64,000 bases of DNA. It comes from Candidatus Nomurabacteria bacterium (GTDB lineage: Bacteria > Patescibacteriota > Minisyncoccia > Phycocordibacterales > UBA918). The stretch spans positions 247,707 to 311,706 of the forward strand of contig CP060229.1 of the NCBI GenBank assembly GCA_023898585.1. The letters are read 5' to 3'. Below, one piece after another: positions 36,764 to 40,215 of this stretch (positions are counted from its first letter, which is position 1; each line of letters opens with the position of its first letter). The translations under genes and the position numbers were made by a program. The notes beneath the pieces were generated by a model that saw only the letters and a list, made by a program, of their open reading frames with translations, was not told the DNA's origin and did not search any database.

Positions 36764-37249
36764 CTAGTCAAAGTCCAAAACATCAGACAGGTATTGTCCT
36801 GATTGTAAGAATACAACGTTGCAACCTTCGAAGTCAGAAAGGATCTCTTTGTTTGTTTTATGAGCATTTGTCATGATCTTCTCGACCACTTCTAACTTGT
36901 TACCTCTATCAATGTACCGTTGTCGATACTCATCTTTGAGTGACTCGTCAGGACAGATGACAGTGACAGACAATCCTCTTTCCCTGAGCGCTTGAACAAC
37001 TACAGGATTGGTTGTGATGAGCACCAAATCTGTGTCCCTGGAACGCTCTATAACTTCTTCTATGTAGTTGTTTGGCCAATCCTCTGCTTTTGTATACGGA
37101 GTTGGCTCTATATCAGCTACAGTTATATCGTCGGACAGACCTCCGGTCATAGTCGATTTGCCAACACCGGGCGCTCCAGCAATGATTCCTACAGGTTTAA
37201 TTTTTTCCACACTAGGAACTCCTTCATTTATTTGTTCAAATTTCTCCAT
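36764..37249 (-). CDS. Small P-loop kinase/NTPase (polynucleotide or nucleoside kinase-like)
   Basis: Walker A GAPGVGKST and a Walker B-like DLVLITT. 161 aa. It lies 56 nt upstream of the 2H phosphoesterase on the same strand. Confidence 0.6.
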   Translation of the reverse strand: MEKFEQINEGVPSVEKIKPVGIIAGAPGVGKSTMTGGLSDDITVADIEPTPYTKAEDWPNNYIEEVIERSRDTDLVLITTNPVVVQALRERGLSVTVICPDESLKDEYRQRYIDRGNKLEVVEKIMTNAHKTNKEILSDFEGCNVVFLQSGQYLSDVLDFD

Positions 37250-37315
37250 AGCTTATTATACAACTTGAATTATCTCTCTGAAGACTTCACACCCTTGTGC
37301 AATCCTCAAAAGATA

Positions 37316-37416
37316 GGGCGAGGAGCAATCTCAACTCGCCCATTACCACGATCACAGAAGGTACACACCAGAGTCTGAGCCTATCTCTACGCTAGAGCTC
37401 TGATGAGGGTTTTTGC
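37316..37416 (-). promoter_or_regulatory. Conserved leader/riboswitch-like element, copy 1, 3' part (terminator hairpin plus conserved core), truncated by IS1595
   Basis: Aligns with 39978-40095, with the core TTACCACGATCAC...GAGTCTGAGC...AGCTCT-ATGAGGGTTTTTGC. Hairpin GGGCGAG...CTCGCCC is followed on the minus strand by UAUCUUUUGAGG, about 65 nt before the kinase start. Confidence 0.55.
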
Positions 37417-38442
37417 GGAGTAAAGAAACTTTTTAGGACCTATTTAGTAGCTCAGAAATAACCCTAAGCCTTCTGTCTCTCCTCAGTCCATGGTGTTGGG
37501 CGATTTTCTTTTTGAGTGACGCAAAGTATTCATCAATAGTATTGGTGGTGTTAGGAATATTAAGCTCTGGATATTTTTGGTAGGTAAATAAATTAGGCAA
37601 GTTTCGTTTCAGTGACATATAGGCACTACGTACATTCTTGTGTGTGTAGTACCAATGGTTAGTACAGGTAACGTACGTTTTCTCAGTATAGAAATTATGA
37701 TACTTCTCCTCCCAAATAGTTAGAGCTTTAGCAAAGTCTTCTTCGTTTGTTTTCGTGAGTGTTAAAGCCAGTTTTCGCAGTTCTTTACCAGCTTCAGTCT
37801 TTGGCTTTCTAGTTAAGTACTTGGTCACGGTCTTCAGTTGATGAAACTGACAGATTTGTACTGGTATATCCTTAAAAACCGTTGCTAATCCACGCCTTCC
37901 GTCCACTACGGCAGCGATGAATGTCCAACCACGTTCTTCTAATAATTTACGAGCGTAGTGATAGTGAGACACTTTCTCAGTCTCAACCTCACCCCACCAA
38001 ATGTTTCTTCGTAAGTTCCATGATCTAAAGACACAGACACCGTAGTGTCGTCCCCAGAAGGTGGTGTCAGCTACGATAACCGTCTTTTGTGGTTGTATGT
38101 TTGGTATTGAGGTTTTAACTTGATCTAATCGTGTACGTACCCAGACGTGACTCTTCTTGTATTTGTTAGACAGTTCGGTCAGCGTTTGTTTTTGATGTGT
38201 ATACTCTTCCCATAATTTATTAACCAACCCTGTTTCTCTCTGCTTAGTTTGAAATCGTTTACCACAATCGTTGCAACCATAGCGCTGTCTACCACTTTGT
38301 TTACCTTTCTTTTTAGTTTGTAATGATAAACAATAGGGACATCTAACTCGTTTATTAACCATGCGAGCTAGATAAACATAAAACCACGGCTATACAGAGC
38401 CGTGGTTTTGGTGTTTTAGGTCCTAGATTGTTTCTTTAGCCC
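37417..38442 (-). mobile_element. IS1595-family insertion sequence, 1026 bp, 8-bp target-site duplication GTTTTTGC
   Basis: Imperfect 24-nt terminal inverted repeats (GGAGTAAAGAAACTTTTTAGGACC on the left; GGGCTAAAGAAACAATCTAGGACC as reverse complement on the right). GTTTTTGC flanks the element at 37409-37416 and 38443-38450. The uninterrupted target sequence is seen at 40089-40096. Confidence 0.8.
37433..38362 (-). CDS. IS1595-family transposase (N-terminal zinc ribbon plus DDE)
   Basis: RCPYCLS...YGCNDCGKRF zinc ribbon, followed by a DDE-type core (IVADTTFW, AAVVDGRRG). Confidence 0.75.
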   Translation of the reverse strand: MVNKRVRCPYCLSLQTKKKGKQSGRQRYGCNDCGKRFQTKQRETGLVNKLWEEYTHQKQTLTELSNKYKKSHVWVRTRLDQVKTSIPNIQPQKTVIVADTTFWGRHYGVCVFRSWNLRRNIWWGEVETEKVSHYHYARKLLEERGWTFIAAVVDGRRGLATVFKDIPVQICQFHQLKTVTKYLTRKPKTEAGKELRKLALTLTKTNEEDFAKALTIWEEKYHNFYTEKTYVTCTNHWYYTHKNVRSAYMSLKRNLPNLFTYQKYPELNIPNTTNTIDEYFASLKKKIAQHHGLRRDRRLRVISELLNRS

Positions 38443-38511
38443 GTTTTTGCCTATGTATGCCACTCATCCCGCCTGTGTGTCGTTTGTTGTCTCAAAATTC
38501 TGGGACTCACC
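38443..38511 (-). promoter_or_regulatory. Conserved leader/riboswitch-like element, copy 1, 5' part
   Basis: TTTTTGCCTATGTATGCCACTCATCCCGCCTGTGTGTCGTTTGTTG...GACTCACC, about 90% identical to 40096-40152. Confidence 0.55.
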
Positions 38512-38534
38512 TTCAACACGAACCTGTATTTTAT

Positions 38535-39902
38535 TTAAGCTGGATTACCTTTTGCAAAAGCGATGTAAAACCAAACTATCAGTCCCAACACACACGCCAC
38601 GATTCCGGGCACAGCGTTCATTAGAAAATCGGTGAACATGCCTTGCCACATCATGTAGAGGTAAACTCCGGTACCAGCCACAGTGACCAGGAACATTCCT
38701 CGGTCCAACGCTCGGCTGACTCCTTTGCTGTAAACTGAAGCAAACAAGGCCGGCGTCAAGACTGCCAAGAGAGTCAGTGCTCCGACAATGAAAGTAACGA
38801 CGTTAGTGATAGTAAGAGCTACAACGGTCAACACGACGAAGGCTATCGCAATCAATGTCCTGAGAGTTCTTCGATAGCGAGCCGGATTTTCATCCTTGTC
38901 AATTCCCAGCCAATTTGATGCGATAGTTGACAGAAACAGATACGCCTGCGTATCAACCGAACTCATGGTAAGGGCCAAGAGAGCCACGCTGATAATCGTA
39001 CCAAGCACCGGACTAATTGCTCCATCGGCCAAAGTATACAGAATCGTGTTCGGATCCGCTTCCGGATAGAGTGCCACCAGCGTCATACCAAAGGCAATAA
39101 TCACAAAGTAGATCGGCAGGTACGTGACACTGTATAGAGTCAGTGACTTGCGGGCAATCTTGGCACTGCCGGCAGTGTACATTCTCTGCCAAATCGCCGG
39201 CAAGGGATAAAACATCAGACCAAAGAAGAGTACTGTGCCCAATACACTGCGCCAATCCCCACCCATCATAAAGCTTTCCGTAGCAAACGAAAACGACGGC
39301 AAATCTGACACAAAAAGAGCCACAATAAGAACCAGAATTATCGCCAAAAATTGAACGATGTCTGTTTTAATAACTGTTTTGTAGCCCCCAACAAACATAT
39401 AGAGCCCGACAATTACCGAAGCAATTATCACCCAAAATGTTAACCCTCCGGCAAACAAGGTGCTGAAAATCTGACCGGTAATATGCAAGAGCGAGGCAGC
39501 TTGGGCTGCTACCAGCACAGTAACTATTACCAGTATCAGCGAGCTGGTCCAAGTCCCGATCTGCGACTTGAGCATATCGTTTTGGGTTAGATAGCGCTTT
39601 TCCTCCACCAATCGGCGGATGCGCGGAGCTTGGACATACAGAATGATGGCAGCTAGAATAATTCCCGCCACGAACCAGTACAGACCAAAGCCCATCACTC
39701 CGGCCAAAGCGACCAGAAAAACCAGTCCTGCCCCGTCTATCGTACTTACAAACAGCGAAGAAAAAGTTCCCAGTACTGATACATTATGGTTTTCACTGGC
39801 GAATTCCAGATCACTTTCACTTCTTAAAGCACGATAGGTAATAAATGCGAGCAAGCCTAAATAAATCAATACGGCTCCCACGACATAGATACTTATTGTC
39901 AT
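38535..39902 (-). CDS. Sodium:solute symporter family transporter
   Basis: 455 aa, about 13 TM helices, with an SSS-family topology and G-rich motifs. Substrate unknown. Confidence 0.7.
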   Translation of the reverse strand: MTISIYVVGAVLIYLGLLAFITYRALRSESDLEFASENHNVSVLGTFSSLFVSTIDGAGLVFLVALAGVMGFGLYWFVAGIILAAIILYVQAPRIRRLVEEKRYLTQNDMLKSQIGTWTSSLILVIVTVLVAAQAASLLHITGQIFSTLFAGGLTFWVIIASVIVGLYMFVGGYKTVIKTDIVQFLAIILVLIVALFVSDLPSFSFATESFMMGGDWRSVLGTVLFFGLMFYPLPAIWQRMYTAGSAKIARKSLTLYSVTYLPIYFVIIAFGMTLVALYPEADPNTILYTLADGAISPVLGTIISVALLALTMSSVDTQAYLFLSTIASNWLGIDKDENPARYRRTLRTLIAIAFVVLTVVALTITNVVTFIVGALTLLAVLTPALFASVYSKGVSRALDRGMFLVTVAGTGVYLYMMWQGMFTDFLMNAVPGIVACVLGLIVWFYIAFAKGNPA

Positions 39903-39977
39903 ATTTAGTTTTTTAATTTTTATTATCTCTCTCTGCGCACTACGTTGTTTTTGCTATGTAATAAGCAGAGAAGATAG

Positions 39978-40152
39978 CGGGAACAAACAACTATTTTGTT
40001 CCCGCAATAAACCTTTACCACGATCACGGCCGGTACACGTCGAGGAGTCTGAGCTGATCTCCCAATGAAGCTCTAATGAGGGTTTTTGCCTATGTATGCC
40101 TCTCATCCCGCCTGTGTGTCGTTTGTTGCCTAAGAAATTACTTAGACTCACC
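39978..40152 (-). promoter_or_regulatory. Conserved leader/riboswitch-like element, copy 2 (intact), upstream of the symporter gene
   Basis: About 175 nt aligning with copy 1. On the minus strand a long-range GAGUCU/AGACUC pairing and a GAUGAG/CUCAUY helix are possible. Terminator hairpin GCGGGAACAAA...UUUGUUCCCGC plus UAUCUUCUCU lies about 75 nt before the symporter ATG. Confidence 0.55.
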
Positions 40153-40215
40153 GCCACCATGCATCCTTGTTGATTTATTACGCGCAGGCAGGAACCAAGG
40201 TCTGCGCGTGCGAAC

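Follow-up and report, generated by a model that had tools for sequence, protein, structure and literature searches.

Introduction

Classical members of the IS256 family of insertion sequences are 1.2-1.5 kb long and carry a transposase of about 400 amino acids. The family is characterized by target duplications of 8-9 bp, by terminal inverted repeats of about 25-30 bp, and by a transposase whose RNase-H-like catalytic domain has an acidic triad, a K/R at seven residues past the third acidic residue and a C/DxxH motif within an alpha-helical insertion domain. IS256-family elements make target-site duplications of 8 bp, and one of them, ISCth4 from Clostridium thermocellum, is 1,503 bp long and has a solved transposase chain of 410 residues (PDB 6XG8, 6XGW, 6XGX), in which no zinc ribbon is described (PMC7780238). 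Duplications of 8 bp are also made by the IS1595 family (ISPna2, ISH4, IS1016, IS1595 and other groups), whose elements are about 1 kb long, have GG termini and contain one open reading frame with a zinc ribbon, and which is diagnosed by a C-terminal DDE_Tnp_IS1595 catalytic domain (PMC8101967).

Here, we describe a small insertion sequence that lies within copy 1 of two conserved non-coding RNA-like elements, referred to as leaders, in the genome of a Patescibacteria member (Candidatus Nomurabacteria bacterium), which in itself is an ordinary event. The analyzed stretch of 64,000 nucleotides (contig CP060229.1, positions 247,707 to 311,706) is called the window below, and coordinates refer to it. 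Three family labels have been in circulation for this element, namely IS1595 in an initial annotation made from the sequence, IS1 in GenBank, and the zinc-binding variant of IS256 in the current NCBIfam, and only the last of these survives testing. In all probability, we are dealing with a complete and probably still active IS256-family element that entered leader copy 1 by a single, simple transposition and thereby disrupted it.

Results

The insertion sequence, a complete IS256-family element of the compact Zn-ribbon variant, extends over 1,026 bp on the minus strand (37417..38442) and is present once in the 64-kb window. It is bordered by two identical copies of an 8-bp target-site duplication, GTTTTTGC (minus-strand reading GCAAAAAC), the left one at 37409..37416 and the right one at 38443..38450. 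The left junction reads GAGGGTTTTTGC/GGAGTAAAG... (37405-37425) and the right junction ...CTTTAGCCC/GTTTTTGCCTATG (38434-38455). The ends carry the terminal inverted repeats GGAGTAAAGAAACTTTTTAGGACCTA and GGGCTAAAGAAACAATCTAGGACCTA, which had initially been described as 24 nt long; the repeats are present, but they are imperfect, matching at 19 of 24 positions, and extend to 26 nt with 21 matches (binomial probability 4e-9). The IRR (37417..37442, minus strand) is located at the 3′ end of the transposase gene and contains its stop codon, and the IRL (38417..38442, minus strand) is located at its 5′ end. Direct 8-mer repeats at a spacing like that of an insertion sequence occur 1,446 times in the 64-kb window, and the GTTTTTGC pair is the only one with an inverted repeat just inside.

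Leader copy 2 (39966..40160, minus strand), which is uninterrupted and precedes a Na+/solute symporter gene, provides the reference for the empty site. The uninterrupted string GAGGGTTTTTGCCTATG occurs a single time, in this copy (40078-40094), and the GTTTTTGC site within it is single-copy (40082-40089). When copy 2 is used as a query, its positions 23-100 align to 37340-37416 with 77% identity and its positions 93-163 to 38443-38511 with 90% identity, and the duplicated 8 bases, no more and no fewer, are shared by both alignments. The same 8-position overlap of the copy-1 flanks is obtained in a profile search (positions 1-39 versus 32-144), and the flanks are furthermore colinear with the uninterrupted orthologous leader of a related lineage, L035, where it precedes a kinase gene whose product is 76% identical. 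The initial annotation was therefore right in placing the insertion inside leader copy 1 and in calling its duplication intact, and the similarity of the flanks to copy 2, on which this placement depended, is genuine.

Within leader copy 1, the insertion sits in a hairpin loop and separates the promoter-proximal 40-50% of the RNA from the rest. The displaced 5′ part (38443..38557, minus strand; profile positions 1-39 at 38481..38443) holds a variable hairpin and, besides the 5′ strand of the closing helix, that of hairpin P2 together with most of the P2 loop; it also contains a promoter-like sequence, TTGCAA-18-TAAAAT, that was found by promoter scan (38557..38528, minus strand). The 3′ part (37303..37416, minus strand; profile positions 32-144 at 37416..37305) adjoins the kinase gene and consists of the 3′ strands of P2 and of the closing helix, hairpin P3 and, ahead of CTATCTTTTG, a terminator-like hairpin (37316-37341). 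The element at 37417-38442 thus physically separates the 5′ part of the leader from the kinase/2H-phosphoesterase genes, as had been claimed. The displaced portion is smaller than the "two-thirds" given at first, since it amounts to approximately 70-78 nt of the unit of approximately 180 nt, corresponding to roughly half of the conserved core of 136 nt. The flanks had also been credited with high identity to copy 2, and this holds for the core of the 5′ flank (38/39), but not for the 3′ flank (48/62, 77%). The two sides of the insertion may hence have different histories relative to copy 2, through gene conversion or IS-associated recombination between the copies. Copy 2 itself is intact in 7 other assemblies.

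The gene downstream of the interrupted leader, which is the first of its operon, encodes a P-loop kinase-like protein (36764..37249, minus strand; identified by homology and comparison with orthologues), and its true start is probably the GTG at 37210, which is preceded by the ribosome-binding site GAAGGAG. Between the leader terminator and the kinase start lies a second promoter-like site, TTCAGA-16-TATAAT (37255..37282, minus strand). Promoter and terminator scans find promoter-like sites about as often in shuffled sequence. The box is conserved in four lineages, among them L035, L033/L034 and L051, and in L033/L034 and L051 it stands upstream of the kinase where the RNA element is absent. 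Because a terminator-like hairpin and a conserved box precede the kinase start, the operon need not depend on the leader promoter.

With respect to a possible promoter supplied by the insertion sequence, inspection of the sequence shows that the IRR carries an outward-facing -35-like TTTACT 3-8 nt from its tip. At a distance of 16-18 bp from this motif, the hexamers are CAGAGC, AGAGCT and GAGCTC, none of which is -10-like, such that no hybrid promoter toward the kinase is recognizable between the IS end and its flank, and the promoter scan likewise detected no outward promoter over the terminal 100 bp. At the other end, a GC-rich 12-bp hairpin with A-run and T-run flanks, resembling a bidirectional terminator, is found between the IRL and the transposase ATG (38380..38409). 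Its conservation was looked for in distant relatives of the insertion sequence and was not found, and for this reason we do not take it as a feature of the family. The insertion sequence and the leader have the same orientation, such that transcripts starting at the leader promoter would run into the insertion sequence and meet this hairpin ahead of the transposase gene, which probably blocks or attenuates read-through. The kinase/2H-phosphoesterase genes, for their part, keep the 3′ half of the leader, its terminator-like hairpin and their own conserved promoter-like box, from which they are most likely still expressed, while control by an upstream RNA, whatever its kind, would be lost.

This arrangement can also be read differently, in that the interrupted element might not be a cis-acting leader of the operon but a small-RNA gene or another intergenic module equipped with a promoter and a terminator of its own, such that the insertion knocked out one of two paralogues and left kinase expression essentially unchanged. 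A terminator-like hairpin 3′ of the conserved core in all three copies, the presence of the promoter-like box between terminator and kinase also in the lineages without the RNA (L033/L034, L051), the intactness of copy 2 in every assembly and the intactness of the downstream genes speak in favor of such a module. However, all three copies directly precede, in the same orientation, genes plausibly involved in uptake or phosphorylation (the kinase gene twice, the symporter gene once), and this placement resembles that of a riboswitch-type leader with a terminator as expression platform, though three cases are too few to decide. We regard the small-RNA gene as a tenable possibility that falls somewhat short of being probable, and we continue to speak of the element as a leader that was disrupted by transposition.

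A riboswitch or other cis-regulatory leader would be recognized by a conserved secondary structure with covariation, by a known ligand class or Rfam family, and by its regular position ahead of related genes. As for the nature of this leader, the consensus fold derived from three sequences is plausible and comprises the closing helix, P2, P3 and the terminator; there is almost no covariation in the core, and compensatory changes are confined to the terminator stem. Single-sequence folding of copy 2 gave energies no better than those of shuffled sequence on either strand (z = -0.16 and +0.07), and it therefore indicates neither a strand nor a structure. The leader had no match in Rfam, either at gathering thresholds or at E≤10. 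When metagenomes were scanned for a leader pattern of two blocks, the already known contig (L038, which equals L035) was the only genuine match; two other pattern matches were discarded as chance occurrences, because they lie inside unrelated GC-rich coding genes. No leader was found upstream of the other kinase homologues (L033/L034, L036, L049-L051). The idea that the leader is a small mobile repeat was rejected, since the 64 kb contain no more than two copies and since another lineage has an orthologous copy at the same locus. That the element is an undescribed structured RNA, with a multi-helix junction, a possible pseudoknot and a terminator, and represents a new riboswitch-like class controlling uptake and phosphorylation genes in a narrow Paceibacteria lineage, seems rather unlikely to us.

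The sole open reading frame of the insertion sequence is the transposase gene (37433..38362, minus strand), which was characterized by translation, motifs and predicted structure. The protein has 309 amino acids, with an N-terminal zinc ribbon of four cysteines (C8, C11, C30, C33) and helix-turn-helix helices, and with an RNase-H-like domain that contains D99, D154, D277 and K284 as well as a CxxH motif (C171, H174) in a helical insertion. D99, D154, D277 and K284 (at +7 from D277) are invariant in both family alignments (A2 and A3), as is C171, whereas H174 is fully conserved in A2 and to at least 90% in A3. In the AlphaFold model (pLDDT 78), helices span residues 173-263, between the strand with the second Asp and the third acidic residue. 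The third catalytic position is an Asp (D277) rather than a Glu and, judging from the motif, would be equivalent to E348 of ISCth4.

The protein matches the NCBIfam model NF048019 (IS256 family transposase, variant Zn-binding type; IS256_Zn_var) over nearly its whole length (positions 2-300 of the 304 in the model), with a score of 311 bits that far exceeds the cut-off of 150 (E 6e-93). The generic IS256 model NF033543 matches residues 140-296 with 45 bits, below its cut-off of 150, and the IS1249 model NF033544 matches residues 6-302 with 121 bits, below its cut-off of 300; membership in the IS256 family therefore rests on the variant model together with the motifs and the fold. Pfam Transposase_mut is matched weakly by 3 of 15 family members. 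When the family profile was compared with the PDB, ISCth4 was the best match (E 0.016), with the second Asp and the CxxH aligned, and a Foldseek search with the AlphaFold model placed ISCth4 chains in the top three positions (E 2.8e-5 to 6.8e-5, TM 0.50-0.55), while all other matches had a TM of about 0.2. Homologues on plasmids that have been given names are called IS1249, IS3503 and IS256. Typical of IS256 are also the 8-bp duplications, seen in five elements, and the inverted repeats of 26-30 nt. With 1,026 bp and 309 amino acids, the element is below the typical IS256 size, as are its relatives (1,021-1,052 bp); this marks it as a compact variant, size being a descriptive and not a defining property of the IS256 family. 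From the HMM, the motifs, the fold and the annotated homologues, the transposase belongs to the Zn-ribbon variant of the IS256/Mutator family (a subgroup of about 305 amino acids) and is close to IS1249.

The initial annotation had instead assigned the element to the IS1595 family. An 8-bp duplication, GG...CC termini, a size of about 1 kb, a single open reading frame and an N-terminal zinc ribbon are all compatible with IS1595 (PMC8101967), the model NF050000 ("IS1/IS1595 N-terminal zinc-binding domain", IS1_IS1595_Zn) matches residues 8-38 with 36 bits against a cut-off of 28, and Zn_ribbon_IS1595 is weakly matched by 4 of 15 family members. These features do not discriminate, because they are common to IS256, and the zinc ribbon is found in IS1 as well. 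The DDE_Tnp_IS1595 domain (PF12762), however, is absent at E≤1 from the transposase and its 14 relatives, and no IS1595 model of NCBIfam matches the transposase at E≤0.1. The catalytic half instead matches IS256 models and has the CxxH in a helical insertion domain, and the sole strong structural matches are those to ISCth4. We thus consider the IS1595 assignment very improbable; the family differs from the one originally given, and the length of the duplication, 8 bp, is the same.

Membership in the IS1 family, which is suggested by the name that the identical GenBank protein carries in its source ("IS1 family transposase", P0001), is hardly any more credible. The IS1 model NF033558 does match residues 8-53, but this match is limited to the zinc ribbon and reaches 33 bits against a cut-off of 100; likewise, Zn_ribbon_InsA is matched weakly, whereas DDE_Tnp_IS1 (PF03400) has no match in the transposase or its relatives. 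The InsA/InsB frameshift organization is absent, the catalytic domain is IS256-like, and no alignment was found that would extend over the full length of IS1 InsAB' transposases and conserve the catalytic residues. The GenBank label of the protein is out of date.

That the insertion is an artefact of assembly, in which a repeat was collapsed or wrongly placed within the leader, deserves next to no credence, for although the short contigs L001 and L002 (samples ERZ28655775 and ERZ27309297) join the insertion sequence to a foreign flank on one side, and L001 also mixes copy-1 and copy-2 leader sequence, such that assemblies near the repeat can be chimeric, both junctions recur without mismatch in independent assemblies (7 contigs from the kinase side and 9 from the symporter side, representing 11 samples and more than one assembler), contig L003 runs through the entire insertion sequence into the kinase operon, and an exact 8-bp duplication is not an expected product of misassembly.

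The IS256-type insertion is present in 13 of 13 samples that carry the strain, and no empty-site allele was seen among 16 contigs with an identical kinase and 9 with an identical symporter. The comparison with an empty site thus yielded none in near-identical strains, but it did yield the uninterrupted orthologous leader of L035. A search of species-representative genomes with the kinase protein gave no match, showing that the source genome and its close relatives are absent from that collection. The insertion had been called recent, which is supported only in part. In favor of this, the duplication and the open reading frame are intact, and a second copy of the element, differing by 2 SNPs and having a different flank, occurs in L001 and L002; the presence of the insertion in all samples and the lack of an empty allele among the contigs argue in the other direction. 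The similarity of the flanks cannot date the insertion, because the comparison is one between paralogues.

Exact duplications of 8 bp, bordering the same termini, were likewise seen for five related elements with lengths of 1,023-1,051 bp, and the data support the view that the element is an autonomous insertion sequence. Contigs assembled from short reads end within the insertion sequence, 27-29 nt from its ends. We predict that at least one further copy will be found in the complete contig, with the 3′ flank GCATTTTCTCAAAAAACC and the 8-bp duplication GCATTTTC.

Discussion

In the scenario that we favor, the element would have moved by simple transposition into leader copy 1, a structured RNA-like element of about 140-180 nt, where it entered the A-tract GCAAAAAC that forms part of the apical loop of P2 and duplicated 8 bp. 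By analogy with IS256 and ISCth4 (PMC7780238), the movement most likely followed a copy-out/paste-in route via a circular intermediate. In such a circle, the -35-like TTTACT of one end and the -10-like AACAAT of the other, which is found at IRL positions 11-16, may come together to form a transient promoter for the transposase; the spacing of this putative promoter, read from the sequence, would be 17 bp if the junction has 5 bp.

Through the insertion, one of the two RNA-like copies has been disrupted naturally, which may provide a useful handle if the element is regulatory. Should the leader indeed represent a new riboswitch-like class, the interrupted copy would be one of only three detectable copies, in an ultra-small symbiont, the genes concerned would be a Na+/solute symporter and a P-loop kinase with a 2H phosphoesterase, and the insertion would amount to a natural knock-out of one copy of a riboswitch-like RNA.

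With respect to annotation, this case illustrates that an IS family cannot be recognized from an 8-bp duplication, GG termini and a zinc ribbon. The compact IS256-like group has approximately 2,200 homologues in the protein collection, many of them on contigs of about 1 kb and many from Patescibacteria, and the listed homologues have no Pfam domain on record. The annotation of reduced genomes can now draw on the documented ends of this group, on its 8-bp duplication and on what appears to be a preference for A/T tracts with G/C on either side.

In comparison with known systems, the element shares with the IS1595 family the size, the single open reading frame, the zinc ribbon, the GG termini and the length of the duplication (PMC8101967), but lacks its defining DDE_Tnp_IS1595 domain and has a catalytic core of the IS256/Mutator type. 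IS1249 and IS3503, an IS256 subgroup from Corynebacterium and other actinobacteria, align over about 95% of the length with 25-28% identity (E 1e-9 to 5e-12), and this alignment takes in the N-terminal zinc ribbon. They differ in that their hosts are actinobacteria rather than Patescibacteria, and the IS1249 model has approximately 380 positions as compared to 309 amino acids here, the score of 121 bits being under its 300-bit cut-off.

ISCth4 is the best and only strong structural match (E 2.8e-5, TM 0.55). It is considerably longer than the 1,026-bp element, its acidic triad is D175/D241/E348 as opposed to D99/D154/D277, and its conserved subterminal TGTAAA motif is only approximated here (AGTAAAG, GCTAAAG). 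Nonetheless, the second Asp and the CxxH of the two transposases align, both have a helical insertion domain inside the RNase-H fold, and both elements make 8-bp duplications and carry a -35-like hexamer close to the tip at one end and, at the opposite end, a -10-like one (PMC7780238; read from the sequence for the present element). The closest correspondence is with the zinc-binding variant of IS256 described by NF048019: the HMM matches over the full length, a Zn ribbon is followed by a Mutator-type catalytic domain, five members display 8-bp duplications, and the element agrees with this variant in all features tested.

Anatomy and reality of the insertion

Read directly over 37000-38900, the junctions of the insertion sequence (IS) are GAGGGTTTTTGC then GGAGTAAAGAAAC... 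and, farther along, ...GTTTCTTTAGCCC then GTTTTTGCCTATG. The coordinates proposed by the initial annotation are exact: GTTTTTGC stands at 37409-37416 and again at 38443-38450, with an element of 1,026 bp in between (37417-38442, minus strand). The 24-nt end repeats that it described match in inverted orientation at 19 of 24 positions and can be extended to 21/26, which has a binomial probability of 4e-9 and is the longest inverted repeat of the region. Among the 1,446 8-mer direct repeats at IS-like spacing in the window, only the GTTTTTGC pair has an inverted repeat just inside. The element is filled by a single ORF for the transposase (37433..38362, minus strand, 309 aa), the stop codon of which lies within the inverted repeat. 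Ahead of the transposase ATG by 17 nt, still inside the IS, is a perfect 12-bp, GC-rich hairpin (AAAACCACGGCT/AGCCGTGGTTTT, 38380-38409) that looks like a terminator on both strands and is absent in relatives of 40-60% identity.

The uninterrupted string GAGGGTTTTTGCCTATG occurs once in the window, at 40078-40094, in leader copy 2 upstream of the Na+/solute symporter gene. By BLAST, MAFFT and profile search, the flanks of the interrupted copy 1 are colinear with copy 2, and their alignments to it (profile positions 1-39 and 32-144) share precisely the 8 duplicated bases. In L035, a contig from another lineage, an uninterrupted element lies directly upstream of a kinase gene (kinase 76% identical). 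Together with the colinear flanks, this identifies the event as a simple insertion into an element that already existed.

An assembly artefact can be dismissed, since the junctions are exact on kinase-side and symporter-side contigs and one contig, L003, covers the IS from end to end without a difference from the window. The identical kinase is encoded on 16 contigs, and all seven that reach far enough upstream continue into the IS end across an identical junction (0 mismatches); the identical symporter is found on nine, all of which pass from the leader 5′ half into the other IS end, again with 0 mismatches. Copy 2 is intact in 7/7 symporter contigs whose sequence ahead of the symporter is 259 nt or longer. 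The contigs that cover one or the other junction derive from 11 samples, and the comparison with related strains that had been suggested revealed no empty allele among them; the insertion is fixed in the sampled strain. Short-read contigs end 27-29 nt within the IS, as would be expected of a k=31 graph for an element with two or more sets of flanks. We regard the element as a real, precisely delimited and ordinary insertion sequence.

A second copy and the age of the insertion

Two contigs, L001 and L002, encode an identical transposase whose gene differs by two synonymous SNPs (window 37530 and 37817), and at their 3′ end the IS is joined to another flank, ...GAGAAAATGC, that is absent from the window. 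This indicates a second IS copy with the expected duplication GCATTTTC. The flank joined to the IS, ending in ...GGGGGCAGTCATGGTTTTTTGAGAAAATGC and likewise not present in the window, measures 187 nt (L001 1190-1376, L002 1119-1305). Positions 1-160 of L001 hold copy-2-like distal sequence bearing a single copy-1 allele, followed by the IS, such that L001 is either a deletion variant without the symporter or an assembly chimera. The two contigs point either to a second copy of the IS, along with a possible variant that has lost the symporter, or to assembly chimeras. The proposal that the insertion is recent draws support from a duplication and an ORF that are both intact and from the near-identical second copy, but from no polymorphism at the site itself.

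The two leader copies are unequally similar on either side of the IS. In the core alignment with copy 2 (40017-40120), the 5′ half of copy 1 is identical at 38/39 positions (38443-38481) and the 3′ half at 48/62 (37350-37416), and in the 3′ half copy 2 is nearer to the L035 orthologue (89%) than to copy 1. The two sides therefore differ in history, and gene conversion or recombination between the copies, close to where the IS inserted, may be the cause.

The interrupted RNA-like element

On the minus strand, each copy runs from a variable 5′ hairpin through a conserved core of ~136 nt to a GC-rich hairpin, the stem of which varies in sequence between copies by compensatory changes, and then to CTATCTT(T/C)T. 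For the three known sequences, RNAalifold predicts a closing helix, the hairpins P2 (GAUGAG.GG/CCCUCAU) and P3 (GAGCU/AGCUC), and the terminator. On visual inspection, a GGAG within the P3 loop could be paired with a downstream CUCC; the AGAG/CUCU found there in copy 1 amounts to one compensatory change and is a hint of a pseudoknot. The duplication GCAAAAAC straddles the boundary between the P2 loop (its 3′ end) and the 3′ strand of that hairpin (its first base), and P2 is therefore split by the IS. The initial annotation had the 5′ two-thirds of the RNA removed; counted from a promoter-like TTGCAA-18-TAAAAT of copy 1 (38557..38528, minus strand), ~70-78 nt are displaced and ~105 nt still stand beside the kinase, so that the loss is 40-50%.

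Rfam gave no match for the element even at E<=10, the window holds only the two copies, and a metagenome-wide pattern scan found nothing beyond L035. Its interpretation as an RNA, resting on three sequences, is plausible, and this rare, putative RNA is the only part of our findings of possible wider interest. A further GC-rich hairpin precedes leader copy 2 (40163-40190, CGCGCAG...CTGCGCG) and the L035 leader (290-315, CCGCAG...CTGCGG); the two differ in a compensatory manner and lack a T-run, and this hairpin may be part of the RNA rather than a terminator of the upstream gene.

Consequence for the kinase operon

Between the leader terminator and the kinase lies a promoter-like TTCAGA-16-TATAAT (37282..37255, minus strand). 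The box TTCAAAGAGATAG...TATA(A/C)T also precedes the kinase orthologues in L035, L033/L034 and L051, contigs of which L033/L034 and L051 have no RNA element upstream of the orthologue. Because the box is conserved also where the RNA is absent, the operon probably has its own promoter. Transcription from the leader promoter, which has the same orientation as the IS, would enter at the terminal repeat on the transposase 5′ side (IRL) and then reach the 12-bp hairpin with its U-rich tail (38409..38380) before the transposase ATG. Neither sequence reading nor a promoter scan found a hybrid IS-end/flank promoter toward the kinase. Most likely, as judged from sequence, the net effect is that the copy 1 RNA is lost together with any control it gave by read-through, while the kinase is still expressed at a basal level. 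The element may alternatively be an independent small-RNA gene rather than the leader of the operon.

The kinase ORF as listed (36764-37249, minus strand, ATG at 37249) encodes 161 aa and is probably too long, since its orthologues have 148 aa and a GTG at 37210, where L051 has an ATG, lies 8 nt past the ribosome-binding site GAAGGAG; this GTG is probably the true start.

The box upstream of the kinase genes reads TTCA(A/G)AGAGATA(G/A)T, with TATA(A/C)T 9 nt further on, and a similar box, CGCAGAGAGAGATAAT, stands ahead of the symporter (window 37255-37315 and 39903-39976; L035 485-560; L033 1095-1165; L051 1590-1630). Its inverted partner CTATCTTTTGAGGATT directly follows the terminator hairpin, and the two make up an inverted repeat whose spacing varies and which at some loci has additional complementary bases. 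This repeat could serve as an operator that overlaps a -35, or form a long RNA hairpin. No ribosome-binding site precedes the symporter ATG at 39902 (region 39890-39940), which lies ~7-8 nt past a TAAAAA hexamer, for which reason the symporter mRNA may be leaderless.

Relatives of the element

The host genome, from the Patescibacteria, measures ~1 Mb; one record labels it Nomurabacteria, another Kaiserbacteria. Relatives are encoded at 20 loci in species-representative genomes, namely in Kaiserbacteria, Saccharibacteria, Paceibacterota and other Patescibacteria as well as a few Bacteroidales and Gammaproteobacteria bins. The window element and 12 complete relatives measure 1,021-1,052 bp, with inverted repeats of 26-30 nt and the common termini G(A/G)GTTAA... 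and ...TTAGACC. Around five elements there are exact duplications of 8 bp (GCAAAAAC, GAAAAAGC, GAATTTTC, CGAAAACC and CAAACTTA), all of them A/T tracts with G/C on either side; the other complete elements have none, perhaps because short contigs are chimeric or because of rearrangements. In many relatives (L013, L014, L015 and others; first 110 nt), a run of seven A follows the transposase start codon by 5-8 nt, e.g., ATGCGTAAAAAAAGTG, and in L013 the longest frame starts late; this reflects either a mis-called gene start or a slippery A-run.

Family assignment and comparison with ISCth4

A Pfam search of the transposase returned no transposase catalytic domain. In NCBIfam, it matches NF048019, "IS256 family transposase, variant Zn-binding type", over its full length (E 6e-93, 311 bits, cut-off 150); the IS1249 model scores 121 bits, under its cut-off, and the generic IS256 model covers residues 140-296. 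Matches to the IS1 model and to the zinc-domain model common to IS1 and IS1595 are confined to the first 40-50 residues, and they explain both the GenBank label of the identical protein, "IS1 family transposase", and the IS1595 assignment of the initial annotation. IS1 can be rejected on this basis. The DDE_Tnp_IS1595 domain, which is diagnostic for the IS1595 family (PMC8101967), has no match at E<=1 in the transposase and 14 relatives, and Transposase_mut matches weakly in three relatives. Where homologues in annotated plasmids carry a name, it is IS1249, IS3503 or IS256, and the closest matches (37-40% identity, Aliarcobacter and Klebsiella) are labelled "hypothetical protein".

In family alignments of 15 and 26 members, D99, D154, D277 and K284, 7 residues past D277, are invariant, as is C171 of a CxxH motif; H174 is invariant in the former and at least 90% conserved in the latter. 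ISCth4, an IS256-family transposase of solved structure, carries D175/D241/E348 together with C262/H265, the latter pair within a helical insertion domain (PMC7780238). It is the best PDB match of the family profile (E 0.016), with the second Asp and CxxH aligned, and its chains are the top three Foldseek matches (E 2.8e-5, TM 0.55; remainder TM ~0.2) of the AlphaFold model (pLDDT 78, pTM 0.66). The NF048019 match, the CxxH motif and the ISCth4 fold, with the IS1595 domain absent, lead us to conclude that the element is a compact Zn-ribbon variant of the IS256/Mutator family, whose third acidic residue is Asp (D277), the presumed counterpart in ISCth4 being Glu (E348).

IS256 and ISCth4 transpose by copy-out/paste-in via a circle, the joined ends of which make up a promoter: its -35 comes from the right end and its -10 from the left, with a 5-6-bp spacer between the ends (PMC7780238). 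In our element, TTTACT lies 3-8 nt from the tip of the transposase 3′ end repeat (IRR) and AACAAT at IRL positions 11-16, and a hypothetical 5-bp junction would leave 17 bp between them; at these positions relatives carry TTAGAC and TAATTT. This is suggestive of a circle junction that would assemble a promoter from the -35-like TTTACT and the -10-like AACAAT. Of the refutation that the initial annotation set for itself, another family with another duplication length, only the first half applies: the reassignment changes the family but leaves the duplication length as it was, and the duplications of ISCth4 are also 8 bp (PMC7780238).
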